From assembly GCA_947626595.1 (NCBI GenBank), contig CANQST010000003.1:8396-72395 (forward strand): a DNA stretch of 64,000 bases, in the 5' to 3' direction. Below, piece after piece: positions 7,035 through 64,000 of this stretch. Position 1 is the first letter of the stretch, and every line of letters starts with the position of its first letter. A model generated the notes under the pieces. It saw nothing but the letters and a program-made list of their open reading frames with translations, was not told the DNA's origin and did not search any database. The position numbers were made by a program, and so were the translations under genes. The DNA is from an uncultured Bacilli bacterium (GTDB taxonomy: Bacteria > Bacillota_I > Bacilli_A > RF39 > UBA660).

Positions 7035-7368
7035 TAATTAACTCCTTTGTTTTCTGTAAAATTAATGTTATAAAATTATTTGCTTTTTAGATTAGTTAAT
7101 TTTTAATGTTCACATAATATCCTCCGTTTTGTCCTAGTACTTTAATATATAAAAAAATTTAAAAAAATTTTTTAAATTATTATTTATTATTAACTTGGAG
7201 TGGTATAATGATAAAGAAACCACTATTAAAAACATAACAGTTTGTTTTTAGATTAGTCAGCTCCACCATAGTGGTTACCAAACTCGGATTTTTTAAATTA
7301 TTTAATAAGTTCGAGTTTTAATATTTAATAATATATGATAAATGTTTTTAGTAATTAAGGGGAAAAAT

Positions 7369-7768: not shown

Positions 7769-7782
7769 AAGACAAAAAATGA

Positions 7783-10374: not shown

Positions 10375-10391
10375 TATGGGGGGGATATAAA

Positions 10392-17500: not shown

Positions 17501-20500
17501 AATGAATTAATGTTAGTATTAGACTTTGATAATGTATCTAAAGAAAATGTTAAAGGAAAAGAGTTTAGTATCTTCTTTGGTAATATAGAAAATAATAAAG
17601 CTACTAATGAAACACATCCTGATGTTGCATTTAAGACATTATTAAAACGTCTTGAAAGTAATGAGGACATAGTCTTAAAACAAAACTATGATGCTAGTTT
17701 AATATCTGAAGACACTAAGTATTATGTTGATAATTATAGTGGAAAACTAGATGGAAATGGCTTTACTATTAAAAACCTAGAAAAACCATTATTTAATAAA
17801 TTAACTAATGCTAATATTAAGAATTTAATTTTAGAAAATGTTGTTCTAGATAGTAATGGTAGAGGTGCTTTAAGTAATGATGCATCTTCCACAACTGTGG
17901 AAAATGTTATAGTAAATCGTGTTACTAAGAAAAGTGCAAGTAATGGTCAAAATGGTGGTTTAATTGGAAATGTTAATACTCGTAGTACTATCAATTCTTG
18001 TGCCGTAAAAAATATTGACTTTAATATTGGCAATGCTCAACAAAATGGTGGTTTAGTTGGATATGCTGAAAACTCTACTATCAGTAATAGTTACGCTATT
18101 GGTAAAGTAAATGGTGGCTGGAACTTTAATGCTGGTTTTGTAGGTAATACTGCTAATACAACATTTACTAATAACTATTCTAAAGTAAGCGTTACTGGTT
18201 ATACTATCTGTGACTTTGCTTGTAGTTATCTAGGTCAATCAAGTTACCACAATAATATATCTTTAGGAGGTACTAATCGAGGTTTTGTAAATAAGTATAG
18301 TTCTATTTCTAATAACTACTACTTAGTTACTGATGGAAGTATAAGTACTAATAAAGACATTACTAATATCACAGCTGAACAAGTTAATACTAATCTATTT
18401 AAACAAGCTAAGTTTGATAGTAGTATATGGCGTTTAGATAACGTTACTTATGAAAATACTCCATTATTACAAACTGAAAAAATAACTTCTATGGATGAAA
18501 GTATTAATGGTTATGATAGTACTAAGACAATTCTTTATAATAACTTAATGAAATTAATGCCATATTACAGTAATGAAAAAATAATTACTATGGCTAAAAA
18601 CATCAAAGATAATTACTTAAATACTAAAGAAATTATGCATATCTTACCAGTTGATAAAAATGGTAATATTGTAACATACTTAACAAATGATAATGTTAAG
18701 AGAATTAGTAAAATAAAAGTAGTCTATAAAACTAAAGAAAAACAAGAATTTAATGTAACATATGATAATACATATGACTTTGTCGCAACTTATCGTATAG
18801 TTGATTTAAAAATTGATTATAACTACAAAAATTACATAATTGATAGTAATTCTCAAGTTGTAAATAACTTAACTAATTACTTGAAAAAATTAAATTATAC
18901 TGATAATTTAGATATCTTAACTTCTACTGGAGATAGTAGAATATATAGAGATTTCTATAATGAGACAACTGTTAATGAATTAAAAGAGTTTGTTCTATCT
19001 TATCTATCTAATAGTAATTATAATAATATAACTAATAATGATATTATAACTACTCATATTGAAAAAGAAGTAAAAGAAGATAAGAAAATAGAAAAGATAC
19101 TATATATGTATAACTACTTTAGACGTTTCTATGACTTAGATATTGATGGTATTAAGTTATATCAATTTATGCTATTTAATATGGATGGTTTTGATAGTAG
19201 TTTAACTCCAAAAAAGATTGCTAACTTATTCTTAAGTGATGGAACTAACTTCAATACTAATGAAACAAATACTAGATATCAAAAAATCTTTAGCAACTAT
19301 ACTAATCTAAATACTATATCTAAATTCTTAGAGTATATGGTTACTGAATTTAGTGATTTAGATATGGATAAATGGACTGCTTCACAATTTAAAGGATATC
19401 TAGCTGAAGTACCAGTAGATGGACATCCTGAAGTATTATATACTTTATGGGATCACTTTAGTAATGAAGATGCTACATACCATAACCCTTATCAAATATA
19501 TAACTATGTATTACCAATCTTAACTTTACCAAAAGATGCTGCCTACATTATATCTAGTCCTGTTCAATTTATAATAGGTGCCCAAAGGACTTATATAGTT
19601 GATCCAAGCAATGAAGAGGAACAAGCATTATTAAGAAGAAAAGTTAAGAGTTATACTGATAGAATGAGTAATTATTACAATACAGCTTATGGTTTCTTAC
19701 AAGATGCTAAAGTATTTAATGATATTCATACTTACCAATTAGATAAGCGTTATACTAAAGGCGCTAATGGAGAAACTATTTTCCATAACCCATATGTAAC
19801 AGAAGAACCATTCCACAAGAACTTAAATGAAGTAATGAACCAATGGGCATACAATGATTATAATGCCGCAACCGCTAATGGAACTCAGATAATTTGGCGT
19901 GTTGAAGGATTAATGGATGGTAACTTAATCCCTGAACTTGGTAATGTTCAAGAATATACATATCAGACTTGGTCACATGAGTCAGCACATAACGTTGATG
20001 CTAGATTATTCTTACGTAATAATGGTAGAAGATATGATGCTGGTGGAGAAGATTATGCTGATGGTAACTTAACTCAAAGTTTTGGTCAAAATGACATTGT
20101 TATGAACTTATCAGTTAATTATGATGCCGGTAGTAGAGTTGGTGCTAACCTTACATATGATAGAATTGCTTCACCTAGCAAAATTCATGATTTCTATCAA
20201 AAAGTTTTTGATACTATATATATAATGGATTATATAGAAGGAAAAGCTTTCTTAGAATTAAATGATAAAGAAAAATCAGGTGTAGCTGTTCAAGTTATGT
20301 ATCCAAATGAGAATTTAGAAGGAGAAGACAAAACCCATCTTAAATACAAATACACAGTATATCAGCATATAGACGAAGATAAGTATAAAGCTATGAAACT
20401 AAATTCTATTGAGGATCTATACAAAGAAAAATTAGTAATATTCCCTAATGTTTATTACTCAACCTATACTGATAATAGATACGGTGGCGAAGGTATAAAT

Positions 20501-28190: not shown

Positions 28191-30197
28191 ATGAATAGCA
28201 GAAAGCAAAAACTAATTATTATAGGTGCTTTATGTCTAGTTGTAACTTTATTGTCTATAGGTTATGCTGTTTTGTCAGCTAATTTAAGGATTAATGGTAC
28301 TGCTAAAGTATCAGGTGAAAAATGGAGCGTTGAGTTTGTAGAAAAGCAGGCAAAAACTATTCCAAAGGGAAAAGCTACTTGTGATATAGGTACAATTCAA
28401 AATACTTCAGTAACAAACCTATTAGCTAAAGTGAAAGTCCCAGGAGACAGTTGTACATTTACTATACCAGTAGAAAATACTGGAACTTTAGATGCCAGTT
28501 TAGTCGATGTTACTAATAAGGGTTTAGCTTTGTCATATAGTGGTGACCAAGGGGATATAGATATAATAAGTAGTTATATAACTTATGATGTAAGATATGG
28601 TAACACACAAATAAATAATGAAACTAATTTTGATAGTATAGATATACTAGAGCCAGGAGAAAGAGAGACTATAATTTTAAAAGTTGAGTTTAAAGAAGAA
28701 GCAACCCAGATACCAAATGAGGTAGTAACAATAACAGGATTAGATAGAACATTTAATTTTGAAAATAAGGTGGGTTCAAGTAGTACTAATCCAACACCAA
28801 ATACAACTCCAGTTTATCATGATGCCAGTGGAGCTAATCAACCAGTGTTAAATGGAGACATGATACCTGTAGTTTATGACGAAACAAGAAAAGAATGGGT
28901 AAAACAGGATTTAGATAAAAGTTATGACTATTCACAACAAGTATGGGCAAATGCTGTAACTGTAGTTGAAGATGGAACACAAACAAGAAGTTATTATAAG
29001 AAAGCCAAAGCCGGAACTGTTATATCAATGAGTGATATAAATACAATGTGGGTATGGATACCAAGATATTCATATACAATAAAGAGTGAAGATGGTGGAG
29101 AAAACTATTTTGGTAAAGCAAGTTCTGATAATGAAAGCCCAACTAAAGCATTACCAGGAGAAATAGATGTTAAGTTTATTTCAACAAGTCAAAATGACAG
29201 TGATGGTTCAGCAAAATATACAGAAAGTCAACCAAGCAACTGGAGAACGAATGATGCCTTTACTTTTGGAGACAAAATATTATCAGGTATATGGGTAGCT
29301 AAGTTTGAAACTACAGGTAGTTTATCTGAAGACCAACAGGCTTGTATTGATTTGAATTGTGATATAAGTAAAATAACGATAAAGCCAAATGTTTCTTCAG
29401 TAAGAAATCAAAGGATAAGCAGTTTCTTCTATATGGCAAGAAGTATGCAGAAAGAAAATAATCCATATGGTTTTAATAGTGAAAGCGGAGACTTGCATAT
29501 GTCAAAAAATAATGAATGGGGAGCAGTTGCATATTTAAGTCAAAGCAAATATGGTAAGTATGGTAATGGAGATTATAGTGGAGCAAATAAAGAAGTTTAT
29601 ATGAATAATAGTAGTGACTATATAACTGGAAACAGTAGTGGTACACCTGATGCTACTGAAATTAAGGGCGTTCTTCATGAATATAATGATATGAATAGCT
29701 TTTCAGGTGTTGGTGCAAGTACTACTGGAACAATATATGGAATATATGATATGAGTGGAGGATCAACTGAATATGTAATGGGAGGATTTGAGTATGATGC
29801 TCAAGGAAGTAATGAACATGCTGGACAAATATCTGTAGCTTCTTCGGGATTTAAAGGTTTAAGTGCTACTATACCACCTGCTGAAACTGGAACAATAAGT
29901 ATGCCAGAAAAGAAATATTACAATGTCTATAAAACAGCCACACCAACTTCTAGCATATGGTCTACAGCAAAGCCTGAACTTGCATGTAATTCAAACATTT
30001 GCTATGGACATGCTTTGTCGGAAACAGCTGAATGGTATGGAGACTACGCTTTGTTTGGTATACGATCATATCCATGGTTTAGACGTGGAGGAACGTACAA
30101 TAGTAGTCCAGTTGGTGGCTTGTTTCTAGCACATCCATATAGTGGAAATTATAATGAAACAATTTCAACTCGTTTAGTTCTAACACCTAACAATTAA
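28191..30197 (+). CDS. paralog B: signal-anchored secreted protein, TasA/camelysin-like N-terminal domain and FGE-sulfatase (SUMF1-like) C-terminal domain
   Basis: N-terminus LSANLRINGTAKVSGEKW...PGDSCTFTIPVENTGTLDASLVDV (cf. SipW-cognate/TasA leaders). C-terminus has NNEWGAVAYLSQSKYG (cf. FGE LPTEAEWEYAARGG), GIYDMSGGSTEYVMG (cf. GLYDMSGNVWEW) and a terminal RLVL. Start placed at the ATG at 28191 after the GGTAGGTGA SD. Confidence 0.85.
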   Translation: MNSRKQKLIIIGALCLVVTLLSIGYAVLSANLRINGTAKVSGEKWSVEFVEKQAKTIPKGKATCDIGTIQNTSVTNLLAKVKVPGDSCTFTIPVENTGTLDASLVDVTNKGLALSYSGDQGDIDIISSYITYDVRYGNTQINNETNFDSIDILEPGERETIILKVEFKEEATQIPNEVVTITGLDRTFNFENKVGSSSTNPTPNTTPVYHDASGANQPVLNGDMIPVVYDETRKEWVKQDLDKSYDYSQQVWANAVTVVEDGTQTRSYYKKAKAGTVISMSDINTMWVWIPRYSYTIKSEDGGENYFGKASSDNESPTKALPGEIDVKFISTSQNDSDGSAKYTESQPSNWRTNDAFTFGDKILSGIWVAKFETTGSLSEDQQACIDLNCDISKITIKPNVSSVRNQRISSFFYMARSMQKENNPYGFNSESGDLHMSKNNEWGAVAYLSQSKYGKYGNGDYSGANKEVYMNNSSDYITGNSSGTPDATEIKGVLHEYNDMNSFSGVGASTTGTIYGIYDMSGGSTEYVMGGFEYDAQGSNEHAGQISVASSGFKGLSATIPPAETGTISMPEKKYYNVYKTATPTSSIWSTAKPELACNSNICYGHALSETAEWYGDYALFGIRSYPWFRRGGTYNSSPVGGLFLAHPYSGNYNETISTRLVLTPNN

Positions 30198-46005: not shown

Positions 46006-46929
46006 TTGATATTAGATTTAGTTAGTGCATGTGGAAATAAAGGATTAGCTAATTTAATAGGTATCGCTAAAACTGCTTTAACTATAATTCAAGTAGCGGG
46101 ACCTATTCTTGCTATGATTGGTCTTGTTTCTATTCTTATTAAATTAATGAGTAATCCTGAAAATAAAAAATTAAAAAATTCAGTAAAAAATTGGCTTATT
46201 GCTTTCCTAATGCTATTCTTTATCCCAACAATTGTAAATGTCGTAATGGGCTTACTAGACGATACCTATACTATAACTGCTTGTTGGAATTACGCTGAAA
46301 ATTCAAAAGTAACAGGAGAAGCCACTTATATTCCCCCAACTGACGAGCATAAGCAAAGTATTCTTGGTGATCCTGGAAATTATGACGAAGGAGACGAAAG
46401 AGAACAAGGCTCTGAAGGAGCATCAAGCCCTACCACTCAAAATACTTCAATTAGTAAATATATTTTCATAGGTGACTCACGAACTGTTGGTATGCATGCA
46501 GCCGTTAATACTAATGATGTATGGAGCGCTAAAAGTGGCCAAGGACTAACCTGGATGAAACAAACAGGAGTACCTCAAGTAGAAAGTTCTATTTCAAGTG
46601 GAGCTGCTGTAATAATACTAATGGGCGTTAATGATTTATACAAATTAGATAGTTATATATCATATATAAATGGTAAAGCCCCTGACTGGACAAATAAAGG
46701 AGCTCATGTCTACTTTGTTTCTGTTCTACCAACTGATGGTAAATACAATAAAATGAATAGTGAAATTAACTCATTTAATAAAAAAATGAAATCAAATCTA
46801 AGTAGTTCAGTTACTTATATTGATACAAGTAGTTATCTAAAATCAAATGGTTTTAAAACTACCGATGGTCTTCACTATGATAATGCTACTTATAAAAAAA
46901 TATATAATCATATAAAAAATAGTATATAA
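46006..46929 (+). CDS. SGNH/GDSL hydrolase with an N-terminal membrane anchor
   Basis: FIGDSRT (GDS block I), GVNDL block. AAGGAGG SD before the TTG start. Confidence 0.7.
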   Translation: MILDLVSACGNKGLANLIGIAKTALTIIQVAGPILAMIGLVSILIKLMSNPENKKLKNSVKNWLIAFLMLFFIPTIVNVVMGLLDDTYTITACWNYAENSKVTGEATYIPPTDEHKQSILGDPGNYDEGDEREQGSEGASSPTTQNTSISKYIFIGDSRTVGMHAAVNTNDVWSAKSGQGLTWMKQTGVPQVESSISSGAAVIILMGVNDLYKLDSYISYINGKAPDWTNKGAHVYFVSVLPTDGKYNKMNSEINSFNKKMKSNLSSSVTYIDTSSYLKSNGFKTTDGLHYDNATYKKIYNHIKNSI

Positions 46930-46959
46930 AAACATGAAAAACTAACGGATTTCATGTTT

Positions 46960-47184
46960 TTACTTTATTATTGATTTGGGATAAGCTGTTCTCTCATCAG
47001 TCCTATATAGTAAATAATCTATACTTGTATTGTAGTAATCAGCTAATTTCTTTAAAAGTTCTGTTGGAATATCTCTATCTTCTTTTTCATATTTAGAATA
47101 ACAAGTCTGTGTTACATTAATTATCTTAGCTAAATCTTTTTGTAATAAATCATTATCTTCTCTTATTTCTCTTAATCTATTCAT
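46960..47184 (-). CDS. XRE-family HTH transcriptional regulator
   Basis: LLQKDLAKIINVTQTCYSKYE HTH_3 pattern. Divergent from the gene at 47302. Confidence 0.8.
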   Translation of the reverse strand: MNRLREIREDNDLLQKDLAKIINVTQTCYSKYEKEDRDIPTELLKKLADYYNTSIDYLLYRTDERTAYPKSIIK

Positions 47185-47301
47185 GATTTCCTCCCCATAT
47201 AATTTTATAATATTCCATTTTGTACTATTGACACATAAGCCATTTTGTCTTATAATTTTATTATATAATCCATATTGGATTATAAGGAACGAGGTAAGAT
47301 A

Positions 47302-47904
47302 ATGAAGAGGATTAAAAAATATATAGTAATAAGTATAATAATAGGAGTATTTTTATTTCTAACTTTTTCTTTCTGTCTGGCAGAAACTTTAATACAAAGT
47401 AAAAATGTATCTTATACCGATACTAAAAATTTAGCAGCCGACAATGTCCAAGATGCCATAGATGGAACTTGTGATAAAATGAATAGTAAGTTAACCCAAG
47501 TAGATAATAAACTGCTGGAAGTAGATAAGAAAATTCTTGATATAGAAGATAAAATGTATACAGCTAAAAAAATAAGTGAAACTAATAGTGTAACTACCGC
47601 TACTGAATGGTTTTATACAGGGATATCTATTACATTCCCAGCTAATTCTTACTGTGCCATAAGTATGGGTAACGGTTGGGCAAATAATAAGCCAGTTGGT
47701 TTAAGACTTACCGCCACTAAAGAAAGTTCAAGTACTGGTGTTCCCGCTCATGGTTTTGTTTATGGTGATGGAAATATTTATCTTACACATAGTGATTATT
47801 TTGAAACAGAAACTACATATTATGTATGGGTTAAGTATGAAACAACCGGTTTGCATGATGTGATTAGCTATTCAGGTTTCTGCGCTACTAAATATAAACA
47901 ATAA
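47302..47904 (+). CDS. secreted protein whose N-terminal leader is shared with the FGE-like family (C/D/E) but whose C-terminal domain differs
   Basis: ETLIQSKNVSYTDTKNLAADNVQDAIDGTCDKMNS compared with VIESKSVLYNRTISGGSSDNVQGSIDELYKMSG of C/D/E. Start placed at MKRIKKY; the ORF track begins at 47275. Confidence 0.6.
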   Translation: MKRIKKYIVISIIIGVFLFLTFSFCLAETLIQSKNVSYTDTKNLAADNVQDAIDGTCDKMNSKLTQVDNKLLEVDKKILDIEDKMYTAKKISETNSVTTATEWFYTGISITFPANSYCAISMGNGWANNKPVGLRLTATKESSSTGVPAHGFVYGDGNIYLTHSDYFETETTYYVWVKYETTGLHDVISYSGFCATKYKQ

Positions 47905-47988
47905 ACTTTTTTCCACAAAAACTGTGGATTTTTTCTTTTTTATAAATGAAACTACTAAATTTTATCAAATAATATATTAGGAGGTGAT

Positions 47989-48336
47989 ATTATCAATAAT
48001 CGACTTTTACTCTTTTGGAAAGTTGGAAGAAATGTTACTTTAAAACAAAAAAATAGCGAAAACGCTATCTCTAAGTATTCCGACTTATGCTCATATCACT
48101 ATGGAATGAGCCAAACTTTTTCGAGAGAAAATATTCGCTGCATGAAAAGGTTTTATGAATGTTTCCCTATCTATGTACCAGAACTTAATAAACTAAAATG
48201 GGAACATTACCTAGAATTATTAAAAATAAATAGTTTAAAAGAAAGATATTTCTATTTAAAAACAGCTATTTTCTGTAAAAGCAGTGTTATACAACTAAAA
48301 GACATTATAAATAAAAATATCTATAATGTCATTTAA
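47989..48336 (+). pseudogene. remnant of a DUF1016 (YhcG-like) gene: N-terminal domain only, no proper start, no nuclease domain
   Basis: The frame reads ...LLLFWKVGRNV...ISKYSDLCSYHYGMSQTFSRENIRCMKRFYECFP...LKWEHYLELLKI...ERYFYLK, matching the DUF1016 N-terminal consensus (lYWeIGr...fS.rNL..Mr.FY..fp...W.hy..LL). Confidence 0.5.
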
Positions 48337-48348
48337 ATAAAAAGCAGC

Positions 48349-50049
48349 TTATTGATTTAAAGCCACTTCTTTTTCCTTTTTTATATCTAAAATGATAGGT
48401 AAAATGATAGGCTTTCTTCCTGTTAAATTACTAATAAAAGGATATAGTCCTTCCGTAACATCAGTCTTTAAACTAGCAAAAGTACTCTTTGGATCTAGTA
48501 AAGCATTTCTTATAATAAATTCTGCTTTATTTTCTATTTTATGTATTAAGTCCTCATTTTCATTAACAAGAATAAATCCCCTTGTAGTAATATTTGGCCT
48601 TATAAGCAGTTCTCTTTTTTTCATATTAACATTTATTATTACTACTAAAATACCATCATTAGCCATTATCTTTCTATCTTTAATAACAGCACTACCTATT
48701 TCACCAATTCTATTGCCATCTACATAAACATCATTACCTGAATAACTTGGCCCTCTAGTTATAACATGATTTTTCATAATTAGAGTATCACCATTTTTTA
48801 AGATAAAAGTATTTTCCTTAGGAATACCACAGTTAATACCAATGTCAGCTTGTTTTTTTAGCATTCTGTAGTCTCCATGGAAAGGCATTAAATACTTAGG
48901 TTTAATTAACCTTATCATTAATTTTACTTCCTCTTCATTAGCGTGTCCTGATGTATGTAAATCAGCTAAGTAACTATTAGTATATACTTTTACACCTTTT
49001 AGATATAACTTATTAATTGTTTTAGAAATACTTAAAGCATTACCAGGAATAGCACTAGAAGAAAATATGACAACATCATCCGGTCTTAGCTTAATCTGTT
49101 TATGAGTACCATCAGAAATTCTTGATAAAGCCGCTAAAGGCTCACCTTGACTACCTGTACAAAGAATAGTAACCTCATTAGGCTTTAAATTATTAGCTTC
49201 TTCTGGTGTAATTAATAATTCCTTATGGTCAATATAACCACCATTTAAAGAAATATTAATATTATTTTCCATACTTCTTCCAAAAATACAAATTTTCCTA
49301 TTATGCTTGTAGCACGTTTCAAAGATATGTTTAACCCTATAAATATTTGAAGCAAAAGTTGCGATAATTATTCTCGAATTTTTGCACTTATCAAACATTT
49401 CACTCAATGTCTCGTCAACAACAGACTCACTATTAGAAAATCCTTCATTTAAAGCATTAGTGGAGTCACCAATCAAAAGGTCAACACCTTGCTCTCCTAG
49501 TGAGGCCATCTTGTATAAGTCAGCCATTGGTCCAATCGGTGTTAAATCAAACTTATAATCTCCCGTTGTAACAATCGTACCATCAGGTGTCTTAATACTT
49601 ATACCATGTGAATCTGGTATAGAGTGGGTTGTTCTAAAAAATTCAACCTCAATATCTTTGAACTTTAGTTTAGTTTTATCGGTATAAACAAATAAATTAT
49701 TATAGCGAATATTTTTATCCTGTAATTTAACCGCAATTAACTCTTTCGCATGATTTGGAGCATATATCGCAGGTATATTAATACTTTGTAGTAAAAAAGG
49801 AATACTACCAATATGATCCTCATGTCCATGAGTAATTAAAAGAGCTTTAATCTTATCTTCATTTTCTTTAAGAAACGTAAAATCAGGTAAAACGTAGTCT
49901 ACACCTAAAAGTTCACTTTCAGGGAAACTAACACCGGCATCAATAATAACAATTGCGTCTTTATGCATTACACAATACATATTTTTTCCGACTTCTCCTA
50001 AACCTCCTAAAACAACAATTTGTGTTTCGTTGGTTTCATTAGTATTCAT
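48349..50049 (-). CDS. rnj: ribonuclease J (metallo-beta-lactamase / beta-CASP)
   Basis: LGGLGEVGKNMY...HGHEDHIG motif. 566 aa. Confidence 0.95.
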   Translation of the reverse strand: MNTNETNETQIVVLGGLGEVGKNMYCVMHKDAIVIIDAGVSFPESELLGVDYVLPDFTFLKENEDKIKALLITHGHEDHIGSIPFLLQSINIPAIYAPNHAKELIAVKLQDKNIRYNNLFVYTDKTKLKFKDIEVEFFRTTHSIPDSHGISIKTPDGTIVTTGDYKFDLTPIGPMADLYKMASLGEQGVDLLIGDSTNALNEGFSNSESVVDETLSEMFDKCKNSRIIIATFASNIYRVKHIFETCYKHNRKICIFGRSMENNINISLNGGYIDHKELLITPEEANNLKPNEVTILCTGSQGEPLAALSRISDGTHKQIKLRPDDVVIFSSSAIPGNALSISKTINKLYLKGVKVYTNSYLADLHTSGHANEEEVKLMIRLIKPKYLMPFHGDYRMLKKQADIGINCGIPKENTFILKNGDTLIMKNHVITRGPSYSGNDVYVDGNRIGEIGSAVIKDRKIMANDGILVVIINVNMKKRELLIRPNITTRGFILVNENEDLIHKIENKAEFIIRNALLDPKSTFASLKTDVTEGLYPFISNLTGRKPIILPIILDIKKEKEVALNQ

Positions 50050-53417: not shown

Positions 53418-53996
53418 ATGAATAATAAAATATTAATTCTTTTAATCACAACTATAGGAATAGCTTTAATTGTATTTGGATGGTTTGCTATTAGTGATAA
53501 TTTAGCTAATAGTGGAAGTGATACTGTAGAAGAAACAGAAGAAAATAAAGAAGATAAAGAAAATATTACTTCTCCTACAGGAGAAGAATATGGTAGAGAA
53601 GAGATAAAAGAATATAAGTTTACTGACTTAGAAAGTGTAATTAATAACTTTTTAAAAAATGATAATACTTTTCCTTATATAGAAGAATGTAAATTTATTT
53701 CTGAAAATAATACTACATCAACATTTACTAAACTTGATAACAGTTCTATCGAAAAAGTAATTAATAAATTAAAAAGTGCTAAGACCTATGAAAAAAATAT
53801 TTTAGGAACATATAACTGTCCAGAAATTCACTTTTTTATTGGTAAAGTAGAAAATAATGTCAAAATAAATGAAGATTTTAGTCTAAATTGTGGCTCTACT
53901 GATATGGTTGTTAGATATGGTGATACAGGCTTTGCTTTTAATTTTGAAGTTAATGACGAAGAAGAACTTACTAATTTTTTTAAAACGTTAAAGTAA
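53418..53996 (+). CDS. hypothetical signal-anchored extracellular protein
   Basis: 192-aa ORF with an N-terminal TM, an acidic linker and two Cys. AAGGAG SD. Confidence 0.5.
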   Translation: MNNKILILLITTIGIALIVFGWFAISDNLANSGSDTVEETEENKEDKENITSPTGEEYGREEIKEYKFTDLESVINNFLKNDNTFPYIEECKFISENNTTSTFTKLDNSSIEKVINKLKSAKTYEKNILGTYNCPEIHFFIGKVENNVKINEDFSLNCGSTDMVVRYGDTGFAFNFEVNDEEELTNFFKTLK

Positions 53997-54060: not shown

Positions 54061-56277
54061 ATGTTTGATAAGATAATTTATATTAGTGATCACTCAGCAA
54101 ATATTAAATTAAAAGATAATGCTGAAGTTACAATGAACCTAATGAATATGCATTTGGTATTTGAAGATGATGTAAAAAAAGTCTTAGGAGAAGTAGACGA
54201 CTTAGACAAAGATATTGTTAAAGCTAGGTTTCTAGGAGAAATAGTTAATGGTAAATTAATTGGTGGTACAATTAGAAAACCCTCTTTAGATGCCAAGATA
54301 AGAGTTATTACTCAAGAAGAAATACCTATGATTACTGGAAGTGATACTAATGGCTTTATGAAATTAGGTGTTAGTCCTTTCTATAATGATTTTCCTGTTT
54401 ACTTAGATGTTAATAATTTCTTTAGTAATCACTTTGCTATATTTGGTAACTCTGGTAGTGGTAAAAGTTGTGGTATATCAAGACTTTTTCAAAATATGTT
54501 TAGTGATGCTAGACTTAATCCATATAAAGCTAATATCTTATTATTTGACTCATCAGGTGAGTATTACAATGCCTTTAGAAATTTAAATGAACTAAATAGT
54601 AATTATCATTATCGTTTTATTTCAACTAATGAAGTAGATGGTATTGGAGAAAAATTACGTTTACCTATATATTTGCTTAATGCCACTGATTTAGCTTTAC
54701 TATTACAAGCAACTAATCACTCTCAATTACCAATTATTGAAAGAATGTTAAAACTTGCTTTAGTATTTTCTCAAGAAGATATGGATGCTAACGCATATAA
54801 AAATCATTTGATTGCTAAAGCTATAATGACTATTCTTTATACTAATGAAACAGCACCTAATAAAAGAAATGAAGTATTTTCTATTCTTGCTAGCTGTTCA
54901 ACACCAGAATTTAACCTAGAAGCTGTAGTTCAAGGAATTGGTTATGAAAGAAAATTTAGAGAATGTTTCCTAATAGATAATTCTGGTAATTTCTCTGAAA
55001 GTGTTTTATTAACAGAATATGTATCTTCATTTATAAAAGAAGAGTTTGATAATTATGAACCACATGGTGGAGTATATTACAATCTTGATACCTTAGAAAA
55101 AGCCCTAAACTTTACTTTAATTAGTGAAGGTTGGCTAAGAAATGCTAATACCTATGGTGATGCTGTTACAATTAGAGTTAGATTACACTCTCTTATCGTT
55201 GGCGATAATGCTAAGTTCTTTGATGTTCCTGAATATGTATCACTTGAAAGTTATTTATCGTCTCTTTTGATTAATAATGGTGATAAATATCAAATAGTTA
55301 ACTTTAACTTAGACGATATTGATGACGACTTTGCTAAAGTTATTACTAAAATTTATTCAAGACTTGTCTTTGAATTTGCTAAAGCTTTAAAGAATAGAGC
55401 TAGTATTCCTTTCCATATCGTTGTTGAAGAAGCTCATAGATATATCCAAAATGATACTGATAGATTTTTAATTGGATATAATATATTTGAAAGAATTGCT
55501 AAAGAGGGACGTAAATATGGAGTTATTCTAGGACTTATTTCTCAAAGACCAGTTGAATTATCTGATACCGTTATTTCTCAATGTTCTAATTTCTTAATAT
55601 TTAAAATGAACCATCCAGTTGATGTTGAATATATTAGAAAAATGGTACCTAATATAAGTGACGAAATTGTTGAGAAGCAAAAAACCTTACAGTCTGGTAC
55701 TTGTCTAGGATTTGGTATGGCTTTTAGAATTCCTTTGATTGTTAAAATGGAAATGCCTAATCCATCCCCATTAAGTAGTAACTGTGATGTTGTTAATATA
55801 TGGAATGGTGAGGGATATGTTCAAAGTGTTAACGCTGTTGTACCAGTTGATGCTCCAGCACCTACTGCTAATGTACCTATGCCAACAGAACCTGTCCAAG
55901 AACAACCATCAATTGTATCAACTATTAAAACAGAAACACCTCTTAGTAATGTTGATTTAGGAATAGAAAATAATACTGAAGGGACTACTTCGGCACCTGA
56001 AACTTCAGAAACTGCTCCTGTTCAAATTCCAAGTGCAATTCCAACAGTAAGTACTGCAGTAAATGAAGAACGAGAGCCAAGTACTATAACTTTAGAAGTA
56101 AATGGAGTAAAAACTGAAGTCCCTCCAACTCCTGAAGTTAATCAAGAAGTAAATACAGTTAGTCCTAATCAAGTACCAGTAGCAAGTGAAGCACCTGCTG
56201 CAAATAATGAACCATCACCAACTATCGACTTGACACTTGATGATGACGACGATGACCTAGGACCTGATTTTTCTTAA
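54061..56277 (+). CDS. HerA/FtsK-superfamily (DUF87-like) P-loop ATPase with a disordered Pro/Thr-rich C-terminal region and an acidic DDDDDDLGPDFS tail
   Basis: Walker A FGNSGSGKS. HIVVEEAHRY and EGRKYGVILGLISQRPVELSDTVISQC blocks typical of HerA-like ATPases. N-terminal beta-barrel-like region. Confidence 0.7.
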   Translation: MFDKIIYISDHSANIKLKDNAEVTMNLMNMHLVFEDDVKKVLGEVDDLDKDIVKARFLGEIVNGKLIGGTIRKPSLDAKIRVITQEEIPMITGSDTNGFMKLGVSPFYNDFPVYLDVNNFFSNHFAIFGNSGSGKSCGISRLFQNMFSDARLNPYKANILLFDSSGEYYNAFRNLNELNSNYHYRFISTNEVDGIGEKLRLPIYLLNATDLALLLQATNHSQLPIIERMLKLALVFSQEDMDANAYKNHLIAKAIMTILYTNETAPNKRNEVFSILASCSTPEFNLEAVVQGIGYERKFRECFLIDNSGNFSESVLLTEYVSSFIKEEFDNYEPHGGVYYNLDTLEKALNFTLISEGWLRNANTYGDAVTIRVRLHSLIVGDNAKFFDVPEYVSLESYLSSLLINNGDKYQIVNFNLDDIDDDFAKVITKIYSRLVFEFAKALKNRASIPFHIVVEEAHRYIQNDTDRFLIGYNIFERIAKEGRKYGVILGLISQRPVELSDTVISQCSNFLIFKMNHPVDVEYIRKMVPNISDEIVEKQKTLQSGTCLGFGMAFRIPLIVKMEMPNPSPLSSNCDVVNIWNGEGYVQSVNAVVPVDAPAPTANVPMPTEPVQEQPSIVSTIKTETPLSNVDLGIENNTEGTTSAPETSETAPVQIPSAIPTVSTAVNEEREPSTITLEVNGVKTEVPPTPEVNQEVNTVSPNQVPVASEAPAANNEPSPTIDLTLDDDDDDLGPDFS

Positions 56278-58291: not shown

Positions 58292-58600
58292 ATGTTTAAT
58301 AATATGACTAACTTTGAAAGTTCTGTTACTGGAAATAATAATATCGTTGATAATGATATGAACGTTGATGTTAATATGAATATGAATTATAACGGTAATA
58401 TGAATACACCAATTAACGAAGGAATTCAACAAAGATGTGTTCATAGAACTATCGTCCATGAAGTTCCCCATGTTTGTCCAATTCATACTAAAATAATTAA
58501 CCACCATGTTTATAAACATACTTATAGACCTGAATATACTTGTTCTGAAGAAAATACTGTAAGTAATGTTCAATGTGGCTCTTGTTGTCAATTTAAATAA
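58292..58600 (+). CDS. Asn/His/Cys-rich small protein with CotD-like (spore coat protein D) features
   Basis: Strong AGAGGAGG SD. VHRTIVHEVPHVCPIHTKIINHHVYKHTYRPEY resembles CotD His/Pro-rich repeats. C-terminal CGSCC. Confidence 0.4.
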   Translation: MFNNMTNFESSVTGNNNIVDNDMNVDVNMNMNYNGNMNTPINEGIQQRCVHRTIVHEVPHVCPIHTKIINHHVYKHTYRPEYTCSEENTVSNVQCGSCCQFK

Positions 58601-58961: not shown

Positions 58962-59315
58962 TTATTTTTGTATATAACTTTTATTTATCTTAATAAAGTT
59001 AATAATCTTATTTAATTCTTTATCAGTTAATTCTTCTTCTTTATTCATATAACCATTTTTTACTAATAATTTCTTTAGTACTTCTTTTTCTTTTAAATTA
59101 TCTTCAATAACTTTAAGCTTTTTTTCATTACCCAATAAGTAATCAATAGATACTTGAAAAAAATTAGCTATCTTAATTAACATTTCATAATCCGGTGTAG
59201 TTCTATTTATTTCCCAACCACTTATAGTTTGCATTGTAACACCTAACTCAGCTGCTAACTCTTTTTGATACATATTCTTCTTTTCTCTTAGTTCTTTTAA
59301 TCTATTTCCAAACAT
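58962..59315 (-). CDS. XRE/SinR-like HTH regulator with a C-terminal extension; divergent from paralog C
   Basis: QKELAAELGVTMQTISGWE HTH_3. The C-terminal about 50 aa are conserved with the regulator at 60947. Confidence 0.8.
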   Translation of the reverse strand: MFGNRLKELREKKNMYQKELAAELGVTMQTISGWEINRTTPDYEMLIKIANFFQVSIDYLLGNEKKLKVIEDNLKEKEVLKKLLVKNGYMNKEEELTDKELNKIINFIKINKSYIQK

Positions 59316-59451: not shown

Positions 59452-60900
59452 ATGAAAAAATATGTAATTGGTTTTATTATTGGAATATTATTAACAGGAA
59501 CTATAACTTACGCAGTAGGTTCAGTAATAGAAAGTAAAAGTGTTTTATATAATAGAACTATAAGTGGAGGAAGTTCAGATAATGTACAAGGATCAATAGA
59601 CGAGTTATATAAAATGAGTGGAGTAAGTACAACTCCATATAAGGAAGAAATTTTAAACGGAGCGGACCCAGTATTGGGTGATGGAATGATACCAGTAACT
59701 TTAGATAAAAAAGGAAAAGTAAAGTATGCAAATCTAAATACACAGTGGTATTGTTATGAAGAAAAGAAATGGGCCAATGCAGTAATACTTAAACAAAGTC
59801 CAAGCAAAAGTTATAAAACAGGAGATATAATCTCAGAAGACGATATTGAGAGTTATTTTGTATGGGTTCCAAGATTTAAATATAAAGTATGGAACACATC
59901 AAGTGCTGATGGTTACCAGCAAAATTTAGCTAATACGCAAAATTCAGCAAATTCTATTTGGCATATTACTGGTTCAGCACGATTAATAGATGTAGAATTT
60001 GAAGATAAGAGTGCAACGGCTTCAAGTGGTACTTACTTGACCCATCCTGCATTTACTACCTTTGGAGTAAGTGGTTTGTGGTTTGCTAAGTTTGAAACGA
60101 GTGGAACCACAGGCGCAATAACAGTAAAACCAAATGTTACTTCTTTAAGAGGTACAACAGTTGGTGATTTTTGGCATGCCTTCTATAATTATAGAAATGT
60201 TAATGGTGAACATAATCCTAATTTAGATCCACATATGATAAAAAATACTGAATGGGGTGCAGCTGCATACTTATCTCATTCAGCATATGGAATAGGAACT
60301 GAAATAAATATAAATAATAATCAAAATTATTTGACAGGTTATTCAGCTGCGGCAAATACAGACCAAAGTTCTTATACTGGAACATATGGAACTAAAACAG
60401 TTACCGATAATGATGGACCAGCAGTGACAAAACCCTATAATACACCAATTGGCTATTTAGCATCAACAACAGGAAATATCACAGGAATATATGATATGTC
60501 AGGTGGAGCACATGAGTATGTTGCTGGTTACTTAGATCCTTATGGTGTTACTAGTAGTGGTGGCGTTGCAAGTGGTTTGAAAGTTACTGATTTAGCTAAA
60601 GAACAATACTTTGATAAATATTCAGGAGCTACAACTGGGTCGTCTTACAGTAAAAGAATTTTAGGAGATGCAACAGGCGAACTCGGCCCTTTCTATTACT
60701 ACATGGAGAAGAATGGCTCTAATTATTCTCACAATGGTTGGTACGCTGATGGTTCGGACTTTGTAGAGCCCAGGTACTCGTGGTTCGGCCGAGGCGGTCC
60801 ATACGATGATGGCGTCTTGGCAGGTCAGTTTCACTTCCATAGGTTTACCGGAGAGGCCTTTGGTTATCTTGGTTCACGTTTGGTTTTAGCAGTCAAGTAA
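59452..60900 (+). CDS. paralog C: signal-anchored FGE-sulfatase-like domain protein
   Basis: MKKYVIGFIIGILLTG TM anchor. NTEWGAAAYLSHSAYG, GIYDMSGGAHEYVAGY and a terminal GSRLVLAVK. GGTGA SD before the ATG at 59452. Confidence 0.85.
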   Translation: MKKYVIGFIIGILLTGTITYAVGSVIESKSVLYNRTISGGSSDNVQGSIDELYKMSGVSTTPYKEEILNGADPVLGDGMIPVTLDKKGKVKYANLNTQWYCYEEKKWANAVILKQSPSKSYKTGDIISEDDIESYFVWVPRFKYKVWNTSSADGYQQNLANTQNSANSIWHITGSARLIDVEFEDKSATASSGTYLTHPAFTTFGVSGLWFAKFETSGTTGAITVKPNVTSLRGTTVGDFWHAFYNYRNVNGEHNPNLDPHMIKNTEWGAAAYLSHSAYGIGTEININNNQNYLTGYSAAANTDQSSYTGTYGTKTVTDNDGPAVTKPYNTPIGYLASTTGNITGIYDMSGGAHEYVAGYLDPYGVTSSGGVASGLKVTDLAKEQYFDKYSGATTGSSYSKRILGDATGELGPFYYYMEKNGSNYSHNGWYADGSDFVEPRYSWFGRGGPYDDGVLAGQFHFHRFTGEAFGYLGSRLVLAVK

Positions 60901-60946: not shown

Positions 60947-61333
60947 TTATCTATTTTTCATAATATATTTTCTATTATTCTTAATAAAATCCATTATGCT
61001 TTTTAACTCCTCATTTGATAAATTTTCTTCTTTGCTCATATAACCATTTTCTACTAATGTATCTTTTAACACTTGCTTTATATTTAATTGCTTTTCATTC
61101 TTATTTGATTTAGTCTCTCTACCAAGTAGAAAGTCAGTAGAAACATTTAAAAAGTCAGCAATCCTAACAAGCGTTTCAAAATCAGGCCTTGTTATATTTT
61201 GACACCATCTATTAACTGCTTGTTGAGTTAAATTTAAATGTTTTGCTAATTCGATTTGTTTAATCTCACCACTATCAAGTGCAAATTTTAATCGTTCACT
61301 AAACATTACAATCACCTCTAACTTGCTTAACAT
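60947..61333 (-). CDS. XRE/SinR-like HTH regulator; divergent from paralog D
   Basis: QIELAKHLNLTQQAVNRWC HTH. C-terminal domain homologous to 58962-59315. Confidence 0.8.
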   Translation of the reverse strand: MLSKLEVIVMFSERLKFALDSGEIKQIELAKHLNLTQQAVNRWCQNITRPDFETLVRIADFLNVSTDFLLGRETKSNKNEKQLNIKQVLKDTLVENGYMSKEENLSNEELKSIMDFIKNNRKYIMKNR

Positions 61334-61580: not shown

Positions 61581-63050
61581 ATGAAAAAATATATAATTGG
61601 TTTTATTATTGGAATATTATTAACAGGAACTATAACTTACGCAGTAGGTTCAGTAATAGAAAGTAAAAGTGTTTTATATAATAGAACTATAAGTGGAGGA
61701 AGTTCAGATAATGTACAAGGATCAATAGACGAGTTATATAAAATGAGTGGAGTAAGTACTATTCCATATAAGGAAGAAATTTTAAATGGAGCAGACCCAG
61801 TATTGGGTGATGGAATGATACCAGTAAGTTTAGATAAAAAAGGAAAAGTAAAATATGCAAATTTAAACACAGAATGGTATTGTTATGAAGAAAAGAAATG
61901 GGCCAATGCAGTAATACTTAAGAGTAATCCAAGCAAAAGTTATAAAACAGGAGATATAATATCAGAAGACGATATTGAGAGTTATTTTGTATGGGTTCCA
62001 AGATTTAAATACAAACTCTGGAACTTAGCTACTGAAGATGGTTATCTAGATTTAAGTCAATCAGAAAATCTTAGTGTTGAAACAGTTAGAGAAACATATG
62101 GAAAAGCAAAATTGATAGATATAGTGTTTGAGGATAAAGATATACAGCCATCAACTACTGAAAAAGTTGACTTATATTATACCCATCCAGCCTTTACCAC
62201 TTTTGGAGTAAGTGGTTTATGGATAGGAAAATTCGAAATAGGTGGAGATGCAAGTAATGCAGTAGTAAAACCAAATATGTCGTCTTGGAGAAATGCTAGT
62301 GTTGGAATATTTTGGAAAAACCTATATAATTATAAAAACAATGGTGGCTCTCATAATACTAATTTAGATCCTCATATGATAAAGAATACAGAGTGGAGAG
62401 CAGTTGCATATTTATCTCATTCAGCATATGGAATAGGAAAGGAAATAAATATAAATAATAGTCAAAGTCATTTAACTGGATATTCAGCGGCTGCAAATAC
62501 AGATCAAAGTTCTTATGAGGGAACTTATGGAACTAAAGAAGTTAATGATAATGATGGACCAGCTGTAACACAACCATATAATACCTCAACTGGTTATCTA
62601 GCATCAACAACAGGAAACATAACAGGAATATATGATATGTCAGGTGGCGCAATTGAATATGTTTCAGGTTATCTTGACCTTTATGGTGTTAAAAGTGGTG
62701 GAGGTGTTGCAAGCGGACTAACTCAAGAAGAACTAGATAACTATTCTAAATATTTTGATAAATATTTAGGTGATAAAGATACACAATTGTCTTCTTATAG
62801 TAAAAGAATACTTGGTGATGCAATAGGAGAAATGGGTCCTTTCTACTATTATAAAGATAAAGATGGATATGTTCGTAGTCACAATGGTTGGTACGCTGAT
62901 AGTTCGTCATTTGTAAATTCCACCTATCCATGGTTTATTCGAAGTGGTAATTATAACTATGGTATTTTGGTAGGTCAGTTTAATTTCGATAGAGATACTG
63001 GAGGTGCACTTAGCTATATTAGTTCCCGCTTAGTTCTTGCAGTAAAATAA
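61581..63050 (+). CDS. paralog D: signal-anchored FGE-sulfatase-like domain protein
   Basis: About 75% identical to paralog C at the N-terminus and over the FGE motifs (NTEWRAVAYLSHSAYG, GIYDMSGGAIEYVSGY). Confidence 0.85.
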   Translation: MKKYIIGFIIGILLTGTITYAVGSVIESKSVLYNRTISGGSSDNVQGSIDELYKMSGVSTIPYKEEILNGADPVLGDGMIPVSLDKKGKVKYANLNTEWYCYEEKKWANAVILKSNPSKSYKTGDIISEDDIESYFVWVPRFKYKLWNLATEDGYLDLSQSENLSVETVRETYGKAKLIDIVFEDKDIQPSTTEKVDLYYTHPAFTTFGVSGLWIGKFEIGGDASNAVVKPNMSSWRNASVGIFWKNLYNYKNNGGSHNTNLDPHMIKNTEWRAVAYLSHSAYGIGKEININNSQSHLTGYSAAANTDQSSYEGTYGTKEVNDNDGPAVTQPYNTSTGYLASTTGNITGIYDMSGGAIEYVSGYLDLYGVKSGGGVASGLTQEELDNYSKYFDKYLGDKDTQLSSYSKRILGDAIGEMGPFYYYKDKDGYVRSHNGWYADSSSFVNSTYPWFIRSGNYNYGILVGQFNFDRDTGGALSYISSRLVLAVK

Positions 63051-63108: not shown

Positions 63109-63139
63109 TTGACATAACCCTAGGGGGGGGGGGTATACT
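63109..63139 (+). promoter_or_regulatory. promoter TTGACA-(19 nt containing G11)-TATACT upstream of paralog E; candidate phase-variable promoter
   Basis: cttgacataaccctagggggggggggtatact. The G11 homopolymer at 63123-63133 sits in the spacer. The spacer is 19 nt as assembled and would be 17 nt with two fewer G. Confidence 0.55.
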
Positions 63140-63174: not shown

Positions 63175-64000
63175 GTGAAAAGAATAGTGAAGAAATCAAA
63201 AATAGATAGAAAACTATTATTAGGAATTATTCTAGGAATAATGATTTCTACTGTTTTAACATGCACTTTTGTTTATGCAGTAGGTTCAGTAATAGAAAGT
63301 AAAAGTGTTTTGTATAATAGAACTATAAGTGGAGGTAGTTCAGATAATGTACAAGGTTCAATAGACGAACTATATAAAATGAGTGGAGTAAGTACAACTC
63401 TATATAAAGAAGAAATTTTAAACGGAGCAGACCCAGTATTAGGAAAAGACATGATACCAGTAACCTTAGATGGAGATGGAACAGTTAAGTATGCTAATTT
63501 AAATACACCTTGGTATAAATATGCAGAGAAAAGATGGGCCAATGCAGTAATTTTAGTAGGCAATCCAAGTAAAAACTATAAAACAGGAGATATTATTTTA
63601 GAAAAGGATATAGAAAGTTATTTTGTTTGGGTTCCAAGATTTAAATATAAAATATGGGACTTAGGAAATTATACATCTGCTTATTCTTTATCACAATTAA
63701 AAGATAATGCAGATAAAACAGAAACTAATTTGGATGCGTTTAGACATATTACTAGTAATGCAAGAATAATAGATATAGTATTTGAAAATAAAAACACTAC
63801 TCCATCGACTACAGTAGCATTAAATTCGTATTATACCCATCCAGCTTTTATAGCTTTTGATGTGAATGGTTTATGGATTGGAAAATTTGAAACAGGTTAT
63901 AATCAAGGAATTGTTGGTAAGCCAATAGAAGACACTTTAAGCTGGACACCTCAAAGTGCTCAGCAAAATATCATTTCTAGTGATCATATTATAGTGAAGC
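63175..64000 (+). CDS. paralog E of the FGE-like family (3'-truncated by the window end; GTG start)
   Basis: The frame reads VKRIVKKSKIDRKLLLGIILGIMISTVLTCTFVYAVGSVIESKSVLYNRTISGGSSDNVQGSIDELYKMSGV..., colinear with C and D. Open to base 64000. Confidence 0.75.
   Translation, partial: MKRIVKKSKIDRKLLLGIILGIMISTVLTCTFVYAVGSVIESKSVLYNRTISGGSSDNVQGSIDELYKMSGVSTTLYKEEILNGADPVLGKDMIPVTLDGDGTVKYANLNTPWYKYAEKRWANAVILVGNPSKNYKTGDIILEKDIESYFVWVPRFKYKIWDLGNYTSAYSLSQLKDNADKTETNLDAFRHITSNARIIDIVFENKNTTPSTTVALNSYYTHPAFIAFDVNGLWIGKFETGYNQGIVGKPIEDTLSWTPQSAQQNIISSDHIIVK

Follow-up and report, generated by a model that had tools for sequence, protein, structure and literature searches.

Phase-variable multigene families of surface proteins are classic features of mycoplasmas, Neisseria and Bacteroides. 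To our knowledge such families are hardly known in walled gut Firmicutes, and we know of none that is built from phage receptor-binding modules bearing signal peptides. The subject of this study is a family that appears to be of this kind: an exported multigene family of walled gut Bacilli, repressor-controlled and in part phase-variable, and assembled from modules of phage tail fibres. It was met in a stretch of 64,000 nucleotides (nt) from an uncultured Bacilli bacterium of the RF39 lineage (contig CANQST010000003.1, positions 8,396 to 72,395), which is called the window below and whose numbering is used throughout unless another locus is named. In this window a gene at 47302-47904 on the forward strand (the 47302 gene) encodes a fibre-like protein of 200 amino acids (aa). 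It stands back to back with a gene at 46960-47184 on the reverse strand, which encodes a 74-aa XRE/Cro-like regulator consisting of a helix-turn-helix (HTH) domain alone.

The Vlp system of Mycoplasma hyorhinis offers a parallel in genetic design. It is a multigene system in which a conserved 5' region and signal peptide are joined to a divergent exposed part, and the spacer between the -35 and -10 boxes contains a homopolymer; this homopolymeric tract switches individual vlp genes ON or OFF. The window family shares the layout, but its members are not lipoproteins, their tracts are poly-G rather than the poly-A of Vlp, and their hosts are probably walled spore-formers. Furthermore, the exposed parts are folded phage-type heads instead of repetitive sequence of low complexity, and a subset of the genes, the 47302 gene included, is placed under a dedicated XRE regulator. 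A tract of G or C between -35 and -10 is likewise found in porA and opc of Neisseria meningitidis, where the length of the homopolymer sets promoter strength. These are single loci for Gram-negative outer-membrane proteins, whereas the window family copies the design over dozens of paralogues, with spacers of 19-21 nt.

The proteins themselves resemble phage receptor-binding proteins and tail fibres (those with the T4 gp10 C-terminal domain, PF21939, the antireceptors of Lactobacillus delbrueckii phages, PRD1 P5 and Mu-like proteins with DUF6273), which have the same or similar heads and the same stalk-plus-head layout. Family members differ from them in having Sec signal peptides, a length of 180-500 aa and their own promoters and terminators among housekeeping genes, and in lacking an N-terminus for attachment to a virion. 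BclA of the Bacillus exosporium and PRD1 P5 form trimeric fibres in which a stalk is followed by a TNF/C1q-like head, as in the layout of the 47302 protein; C1q/TNF-like fibres of endospore appendages are comparable too. BclA, unlike the 47302 protein, has a collagen-like stalk and lacks a signal peptide, its assembly taking place in the mother cell, and the identity between the two is about 10%. The variable proteins of diversity-generating retroelements (DGRs), such as TaqVP and Mtd of a Bordetella phage, are similar in fold to the C-terminal domains (the cargo) of three paralogues in the window, termed C, D and E, and not to that of the 47302 protein. As for the regulator, small XRE repressors of the Cro and C-protein type are comparable: the 74-aa protein of the window is likewise an HTH domain only, with back-to-back promoters and with repeated or palindromic sites over the regulated promoter. 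In those systems the regulated gene is a phage lytic operon or a restriction enzyme; here it encodes a secreted fibre-like protein, and the operators are putative. A quorum-sensing pair of the RRNPP type was rejected, the regulator being an HTH-only protein of 74 aa and its partner a folded protein of 200 aa, not a small peptide. Membership of a known anti-phage defence system or toxin-immunity pair was rejected as well, PADLOC giving no match beyond generic HTH.

Leader, stalk and head of the 47302 protein

The first-pass annotation of the window had proposed that the 47302 product begins with the same leader as the products of paralogues C (59452), D (61581) and E (63175), and BLASTP, shuffle tests and a motif scan bear this out: all four share a signal peptide followed by a conserved motif. 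Comparison of 47302 with 59452 by BLASTP gave a single significant segment, residues 4-54 against 1-50, with 22 of 52 positions identical (E 1e-6). Because the hydrophobic part of such a leader could mislead, the hydrophobic signal segment and the polar motif were shuffled apart. The signal-peptide part gave z=5.3. The motif alone (residues 28-62; ETLIQSKNVSYTDTKNLAADNVQDAIDGTCDKM against VIESKSVLYNRTISGGSSDNVQGSIDELYKM) gave z=7.3, its score being reached by one of 20,000 shuffles, so that the similarity of the leaders is not just hydrophobic low complexity; chance similarity, the outcome that the same annotation had named as fatal to its claim, is not what was found. When all six frames of the window were scanned for the core of the motif, exactly four genes were returned, 47302, 59452, 61581 and 63175. 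The C-terminal parts of 47302 and its paralogue are a different matter, as had also been proposed: no BLASTP similarity was found, the shuffle test gave z=0.0 (950 of 2,000 shuffles reach the score), and a jelly-roll stands against an FGE/C-type-lectin fold. An FGE/C-type-lectin identity for the 47302 head was rejected on these grounds.

The motif has the consensus xVxYDNxxSGLxxxNVQDAIDEL and no Pfam model. A leader profile (A4) was searched exhaustively against 1.84 billion representative proteins at E<=1e-3, a word-index search with the profile having given short fragments only, and 4,330 representative clusters were obtained. The motif occurs in tandem, with 44 copies in a protein of 5,298 aa and 26 in one of 2,309 aa, and four to eight copies are found in proteins of 400-800 aa, some of which have at their end the Collar domain of phage tails or the tail-fibre chaperone domain Peptidase_S74. 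On a viral contig of IMG/VR it is present in a 594-aa protein that is encoded directly after Baseplate_J and Mu Gp48 and has DUF6273 at its end; this protein occupies the position of the tail fibre. The tandem copies in fibre-like proteins and the number of clusters show that the leader is not private to the genome of the window. In sequence searches of the PDB, neither the leader profile nor a multi-repeat protein found more than chance matches. A full-text literature search for motif strings found no papers, a keyword search for a described family of this kind found nothing relevant, and tblastn with a segment of four motif repeats gave no match in 50,697 phage genomes, although the query may have been masked as low-complexity sequence.

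About half of the best-scoring 150 hits are proteins of 160-530 aa with an N-terminal signal peptide, a single motif and diverse C-termini. The leader is thus a signal peptide fused to one fibre-repeat unit. It is conserved but is not a dedicated export leader, as it consists of a Sec-type signal peptide and one unit of a phage-tail-fibre-type repeat. When 59 proteins with a signal peptide and a single motif were scanned, 24 had a Gp10_C domain and four had DUF6273; the others were without a Pfam domain and include the jelly-roll type and an FGE-type protein. At least four types of head are therefore carried on the leader, namely jelly-roll, Gp10_C (T4 gp10_C), FGE/C-type lectin and DUF6273, and the last three also occur in receptor-binding proteins of phages. 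The Gp10_C heads align with antireceptors of Lactobacillus delbrueckii phages, tail proteins of Streptococcus phages and tail fibres of Vibrio phages.

The 47302 protein, of which an identical copy exists in public assemblies (P0001), was analysed with an AlphaFold (AF2) monomer model and by aligning 28 full-length homologues, which are 168-213 aa long, have identities of 36-62% and almost all end in CATKYK. Pfam, NCBIfam, PHROGs and PADLOC gave no meaningful match for the 200-aa protein; matches to ArlX, PspC and spanin were weak, reflect only the transmembrane-plus-helix segment and were discarded. Residues 1-27 (47302-47382; MKRIKKYIVISIIIGVFLFLTFSFCLA) form the predicted signal peptide. 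By inspection it has an n-h-c layout, with MKRIKK, 18-20 hydrophobic residues and C-L-A followed by E. Ala27, at -1 of the predicted cleavage site, is invariant in the 28 homologues, and the residue at -3 is small or hydrophobic. The pattern is that expected of a Sec-type signal peptide, and signal peptidase I would be predicted to cleave after Ala27. A bacterial lipoprotein was also considered and rejected, since no conserved lipobox ([LVI][ASTVI][GAS]C) was found: a Cys before the cleavage site is present in some members only (..VSSCYVLAE..) and absent in many. In the 47302 protein the region before cleavage is F-S-F-C.

The mature N-terminus, residues 28-60 (47383-47481; ETLIQSKNVSYTDTKNLAADNVQDAIDGTCDKM), is the single copy of the tail-fibre-type repeat and the most conserved part of the family, with a mean column entropy of 0.34 bit. 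It runs into a coiled-coil stalk of four heptads, residues 57-85 (47470-47556), whose a and d positions, read from the sequence, are C57, M60, L64, V67, L71, V74, I78, I81 and M85; AF2 places a helix at residues 45-83 (predicted local distance difference test, pLDDT, 71-84). The 47302 protein and its closest homologue, P0002, have a 14-residue insertion relative to the other 26 homologues, which amounts to exactly two heptads and is what a coiled coil tolerates. The stalk is probably trimeric, its heptads with beta-branched a/d residues being at most suggestive of this state. The head comprises residues 86-200 (47557-47904, with the stop codon) and ends in CATKYKQ. AF2 models residues 86-197 of it as a beta-sandwich with pLDDT mostly >90, and the model has the compact jelly-roll of 8-10 strands that marks TNF/C1q-like heads. 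The fold is like that of TNF, C1q, BclA and PRD1 P5, and Foldseek of the head against viral models gave weak matches to tail-fibre proteins (E about 1e-5, template modelling score, TM, 0.33-0.5). The head is hypervariable in its centre (residues 120-165; 2.6 bits in the alignment of homologues), while the framework strands, Cys118 and Cys194 are conserved.

Promoters and mosaicism of the family

The 74-aa regulator passes the Pfam gathering score for HTH_3 (PF01381) with 52.6 bits against a cut-off of 23 (E 4.8e-14), and it also matches PHROG families of transcriptional regulators. Between its gene and the 47302 gene lies a divergent control region of 117 nt (47185-47301). The promoter facing 47302 has the -35 box TTGACA (47228-47233), a 17-nt spacer and the -10 box TATAAT (47251-47256), matching the sigma-70 consensus at 12 of 12 positions; a weaker candidate promoter of the XRE gene, on the minus strand from 47234 to 47207, overlaps this region. 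A 9-nt direct repeat, CCATTTTGT, is located at 47215-47223 and 47240-47248, its second copy falling within the spacer of the 47302 promoter, and a palindrome with 9-nt arms, TATAATCCAtatTGGATTATA, lies at 47264-47284, a short way 3' of the -10 box. The repeats and the palindrome are candidate operators for the XRE protein. The 47302 gene has a Shine-Dalgarno (SD) sequence, GAGGT, about 7 nt 5' of its ATG, and an intrinsic terminator follows on the same strand at 47912-47938, formed by the stem-loop TCCACAaaaacTGTGGA and a T-run (a terminator scan found two against 0.1 expected). The gene is monocistronic. Rfam gave no match over 46800-48400. There is no homopolymer tract in the 47302 promoter, and the gene is not in itself a slipped-strand contingency locus.

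The neighbours of the module are housekeeping genes (a tRNA synthetase, DcuC, NAGPA, GNAT, RNase J, FtsY and Ffh), and related copies of the family adjoin mnmE-gidAB-parB or leuS. A phage tail fibre or other structural gene of a prophage was ruled out by these neighbours and by the lack of a phage morphogenesis module at the locus. When a single genome was scanned for each species, 56 loci were found, some 50 of them in one rabbit-gut metagenome-assembled genome (MAG), uncultured Bacilli bacterium Lapin-017__bin44. This one MAG has about 62 leader genes. About 25 of these have jelly-roll heads, about 33 have Gp10_C heads and a few are truncated; they are often arranged in tandem and lie among housekeeping genes, for example mnmE, gidAB and parB. 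Among leader genes with a visible upstream region, 16 have a divergent gene for a homologous small XRE protein and 10 come after another leader gene; the remainder, and those at contig ends, mostly have a conserved poly-G promoter. Every XRE-paired spacer that was examined has palindromes or repeats of its own that overlap the cargo promoter.

The family is mosaic. In 17 genes the signal peptide is at least 85% (up to 100%) identical to that of a gene with the other class of head; the motif and stalk, unlike the signal peptides, are class-specific. P0002, a jelly-roll paralogue 62% identical to the 47302 protein and encoded after leuS, comes from a sample that also carries the window's gene D. 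Its XRE is 78% identical to one that accompanies a Gp10_C gene in another MAG, and the two share the same triple ACATTT..AAATGT operator layout. Signal peptides and XRE/operator sets that are common to different head classes argue that the regulatory cassette, signal peptide, motif/stalk and head are exchangeable. The modular arrangement suggested for the window, with a common leader, exchangeable C-terminal domains and a local regulator, thus holds well beyond it. The regulator belongs to the module in some members; an XRE gene is not obligatory, since many members, gene E among them, use a poly-G promoter instead.

The family promoter of this second type reads ...TTTTCTTGACA-ATACCACCCT-G(8-11)-TAT(A/T)AT, followed after about 45 nt by the ATG. 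About 50 family promoters are of the form TTGACA-N10-G(8-11)-TATAAT with 8-10 nt between TTGACA and the G tract, including those at loci L002, L006, L013 and L073. In 441 kb of loci there are 57 G runs of at least 7 nt; every one of them is on the gene strand, and only about five lie outside this promoter context. The -35/-10 spacers of the poly-G promoters are 19 nt (18 promoters), 20 nt (14), 21 nt (three), 18 nt (one) and 17 nt (one) long, so that most exceed the 17-nt optimum. At three loci (L015 6797, L021 6667 and L025 6654) the conserved -35 region and G7-9 are followed by a different conserved sequence, AGACTGTCTGAGAATGAA.., in place of the -10 box; this variant may represent a further class of promoter, a joint left by recombination or an artefact of assembly. 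In the window, the poly-G promoter is that of gene E (63109-63139, forward strand), with TTGACA at 63109-63114, taacccta, G11 at 63123-63133 and TATACT at 63134-63139, giving a 19-nt spacer. Its tract is G11 in the window and G10 in another sample, while a third contig ends inside it, and a second poly-G locus has G9, G10 and G9 in three samples, all lengths being those of the assembly consensus. By chance about 0.14 G runs of at least 7 nt would be expected per strand in 64 kb; the only other one in the window, at 10378-10384, is 7 nt before the ATG of an open reading frame (ORF) at 10392-10955 and may be an SD-like tract. Contigs often begin inside a G tract, which places the starts of 30 genes no more than 350 nt from a contig end, and poly-G promoters explain why such genomes assemble poorly. 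The architecture has the anatomy of a slipped-strand switch in the promoter spacer, by which these genes would be turned ON and OFF.

Two further features of the related genomes were noted. Secreted proteins of 186-280 aa, called X here, have the motif at their extreme C-terminus (..YDNTKSKSKCTDVKCALDELYEKLR*). Their genes are found at L071 (3428-3991), L073 (3431-3991 and 5584-6147), L025 (ending at 6013) and L013 (ending at 3343); all but the one at L013 are followed after 10-15 nt by a leader gene, and a divergent XRE gene or a poly-G promoter stands before the pair. Beside the leader locus of L071, at 5575-8394, there are a SpoIIAA-like STAS gene, a sigma factor gene and spoVAC/D/E, and the window encodes at 58292-58600 a His/Cys-rich 102-aa protein without a database match, which we take to resemble the spore-coat protein CotD. 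The spore genes and the CotD-like protein indicate that these Bacilli MAGs are probably those of walled endospore formers.

Paralogues C, D and E and other genes of the window

Gene C (59452-60900, forward strand; leader ..SVIESKSVLYNRTISGGSSDNVQGSIDELYKM..) has an FGE/C-type-lectin-like cargo, and its XRE regulator is encoded at 58962-59315 on the reverse strand (117 aa; HTH_3 E 4.3e-19). Gene D (61581-63050, forward strand), which is 74% identical to C, is paired with an XRE gene at 60947-61333 on the reverse strand (128 aa; HTH_3 E 2.2e-12). Gene E (63175-64000, forward strand) is cut by the end of the window and has no XRE gene. Divergent pairing with an XRE regulator, which had been ascribed to all of these genes, is therefore found for 47302, C and D; it fails for E, which stands in tandem after D behind its poly-G promoter.

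The label 'FGE-like' for the cargo of C, D and E proved right, as shown by the profile of its family and by the best match of the gene C model to TaqVP. The cargo family has more than 4,000 members. Seventeen of 29 sampled members reach PF03781 (FGE-sulfatase; best E 1.9e-6), the window sequences themselves being below the Pfam threshold, and the best PDB match of the family profile in hmmsearch was TaqVP (5vf4; E 4.7e-6), a variable protein of a DGR. Foldseek of the AlphaFold model of gene C gave TaqVP with a probability value of 0.97, followed weakly by PvdO and by Mtd, the tropism determinant of a Bordetella phage.

The last 180 nt or so of gene C (60720-60900) contain 17-19% A and 47-52% GC, compared with about 40% A and 30-37% GC elsewhere in the gene, and differ from gene D at many codons. 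An A-depleted 3' end in a C-type-lectin fold is a signature of DGR variable regions, although here it is only suggestive. A role of C and D as DGR targets was rejected: the window has no template repeat, no reverse transcriptase and no second copy of the 3' region, and the region is identical in three samples. Gene C and its counterparts P0152/P0153 from other samples differ little, and the differences QS/SN (residues 115-116) and DG/KD (residues 77-78) match the sequences of paralogues D and E, which points to gene conversion within this tandem group.

Cargo of the FGE/C-type-lectin type is carried by two further genes of the window, one at 26191-27213 and 27286-28158 and the other at 28173-30197. 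The former consists of two ORFs, either by a frameshift or as a pseudogene, and the product of the latter matches gene C with E 1e-46. Their N-terminal module comprises a signal peptide, 'SIGYAVLSANLRINGTA' and a beta-sandwich with a weak DUF11 match, and homologues elsewhere have camelysin-type or prepilin N_methyl N-termini. Upstream, at 25995-26050, an (AT)11 repeat lies inside a short ORF (MNKLKNRRN-IYIYIY..) that repeats a leader start in out-of-phase or degenerate form; another frame would end at a TGA that overlaps the ATG of 26191. At L065, about 4505-4560, the same start reads in frame into an FGE-type leader gene. The (AT)11 repeat may be a second, translational slipped-strand switch.

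Close to the 47302 module, the gene at 46006-46929, upstream of the XRE gene, encodes an N-terminal membrane segment fused to a GDSL/SGNH hydrolase domain. The segment resembles pilin-like transmembrane proteins of type IV secretion systems (T4SS) or conjugation, by weak matches below the cut-offs, and the gene comes after those for a NAGPA phosphodiester glycosidase and a GNAT protein; the region may be a cluster for modification of cell-surface glycans. Directly 3' of the 47302 terminator, a 76-aa ORF (47980-48336) matches just the end of the DUF1016 N-terminal domain (E 4.4e-15) and is probably the remnant of a YhcG-like nuclease gene. Farther away, a HerA-type ATPase is encoded at 54061-56277, with a very strong PADLOC match (PDLC04102, E 1.5e-108), and is preceded by an unannotated ORF of 192 aa at 53418-53996; the two may form a HerA-associated defence pair. 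A giant ORF of 3,178 aa at 11513-21049, with only weak dockerin and GLUG-motif matches, is presumably a large surface protein.

Proposed function and alternative readings

With about even confidence we place the 47302 gene, under the control of a repressor, in a mosaic family that is phase-variable in part and whose products would be exported binding proteins, trimeric and descended from fibres of phages. The Sec-type signal peptide would export the 200-aa product, and the mature protein of about 173 aa would start after Ala27. It would be a short fibre, descended from phage fibre modules, in which one repeat motif and a four-heptad coiled coil bring about trimerisation and carry a TNF/C1q-like jelly-roll head with its hypervariable centre exposed. 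The head would most likely bind an extracellular ligand, so that the protein would act as an adhesin- or lectin-like 'receptor-binding' protein, extracellular or associated with the surface. Most likely the 74-aa XRE protein would repress the 47302 promoter and autoregulate its own gene until some condition relieves the repression. In the family as a whole, four cassettes would be recombined: regulation (XRE with operators, or poly-G), signal peptide, motif/stalk and head. The cell would gain by this a repertoire of alternative binding or antigenic heads, many of them switched by slipped-strand changes in the G tracts.

Several points weigh against this scheme. The motif region, through which the fibre would in part trimerise, is modelled with low confidence (pLDDT <50 at residues 23-47), and no wall anchor of the LPXTG, SLH or choline-binding type is present in the protein, leaving its retention at the surface unexplained. 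The jelly-roll head had no sequence match in genomes of cultured phages (tblastn of the mature 47302 protein, 50,697 genomes). Conservation of the motif in those phage proteins to which the Gp10_C heads align was considered and rejected, as the alignments span the region and the motif is not kept. The spacers of 19-21 nt fit promoters that are mostly OFF, yet they could also mean that the -35 and -10 boxes were wrongly assigned. Lengths of homopolymers taken from short-read assemblies are error-prone, and the differences in tract length between samples may have this origin.

A rather different role for the motif is conceivable but unlikely. It could be a hetero-association tag by which the cargo is docked on a separately secreted X protein, so that exchangeable heads would be displayed on a common scaffold or fibre. 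X genes ending in ..YDNTKSKSKCTDVKCALDELYEKLR or ..DDVQCALDEINRMIK do lie 10-15 nt upstream of leader genes at L071, L073 (twice), L025 and apparently L024. The N-terminal signal and 'SIGYxxLxxNLRIxG' of X are common to the 26191/28173 proteins, in which this module is fused directly to FGE-type cargo, and in other species the same cargo follows N-termini of the camelysin/TasA or prepilin type, which are fibre-assembly modules. However, there is no X-like gene beside 47302 or anywhere else in the window, in the expanded MAG an X gene is missing beside most leader genes, and the similarity between X and the 26191/28173 fusions extends over the N-terminal 56 or so residues only (E 7e-7). A Rosetta-stone argument that X and cargo together equal the fused proteins is weakly supported by a match of that length. 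In its broadest form, which we hold to be just as doubtful, the idea is that the motif is an unrecognised 'plug' for self- and hetero-association with which walled gut Firmicutes mount interchangeable phage-derived heads on a common secreted scaffold (X, or TasA- or pilin-like fibres), each head gene being switched on its own by a mini-repressor or, stochastically, by a poly-G promoter. If true, this would be a bacterial combinatorial display made from domesticated tail-fibre parts, which would serve in adhesion, in evading immunity or in masking the receptors of phages.

The remaining readings carry less weight than docking. One concerns anti-phage activity or competition: the heads would bind receptors of the cell itself or of competitors, thereby masking phage adsorption or antagonising other cells, and the XRE protein would be a remnant of a phage regulator of the cI/Cro type. 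The types of head are those of phage receptor-binding proteins, the regulators are cI/Cro-like, and phase variation is common in genes for phage receptors. We nevertheless think this improbable, given that PADLOC had no match for the 200-aa protein, gene C or P0029 and only generic HTH for the XRE proteins, that the module has no killing or enzymatic domain and no immunity gene, and that there is no prophage context around it. An uncleaved signal-anchor, the term of the first-pass annotation, would tether the fibre to the cytoplasmic membrane, and it agrees with the single long helix that AF2 predicts over residues 3-34 and with the lack of any other anchoring device. To us it is about equally improbable. 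The invariant Ala at -1, the small residue at -3 in 28 homologues and the conserved polar mature N-terminus are like those of a signal peptidase I substrate, and the small residues at -3 and -1 (V/A-x-A before E/Q) would fit a cleaved signal peptide better than an anchor. Moreover, the relatives are spore-forming, walled Firmicutes (with SpoVA and sigma-F neighbours), and about 170 aa of ectodomain would scarcely suffice to span the wall. Finally, the N-terminal 27 residues are hydrophobic and biased in composition and small XRE genes are very common, from which it might be supposed that the leaders are alike by chance or low complexity and that the XRE gene is adjacent by coincidence. This is refuted by the shuffle test of the motif (z=7.3, one in 20,000), by the invariance of the motif in dozens of homologues and by 16 independent leader genes with a divergent XRE, and we give it practically no weight.

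Among the members of the family, XRE-controlled copies such as 47302, which is small and monocistronic and has a textbook promoter and candidate operators, are convenient starting points for work on the proposed exported binding proteins. If the heads bind glycans of the host or of microbes, colonisation of the gut and the interplay between phages and their hosts would be determined to a major degree by a family that has so far escaped notice.

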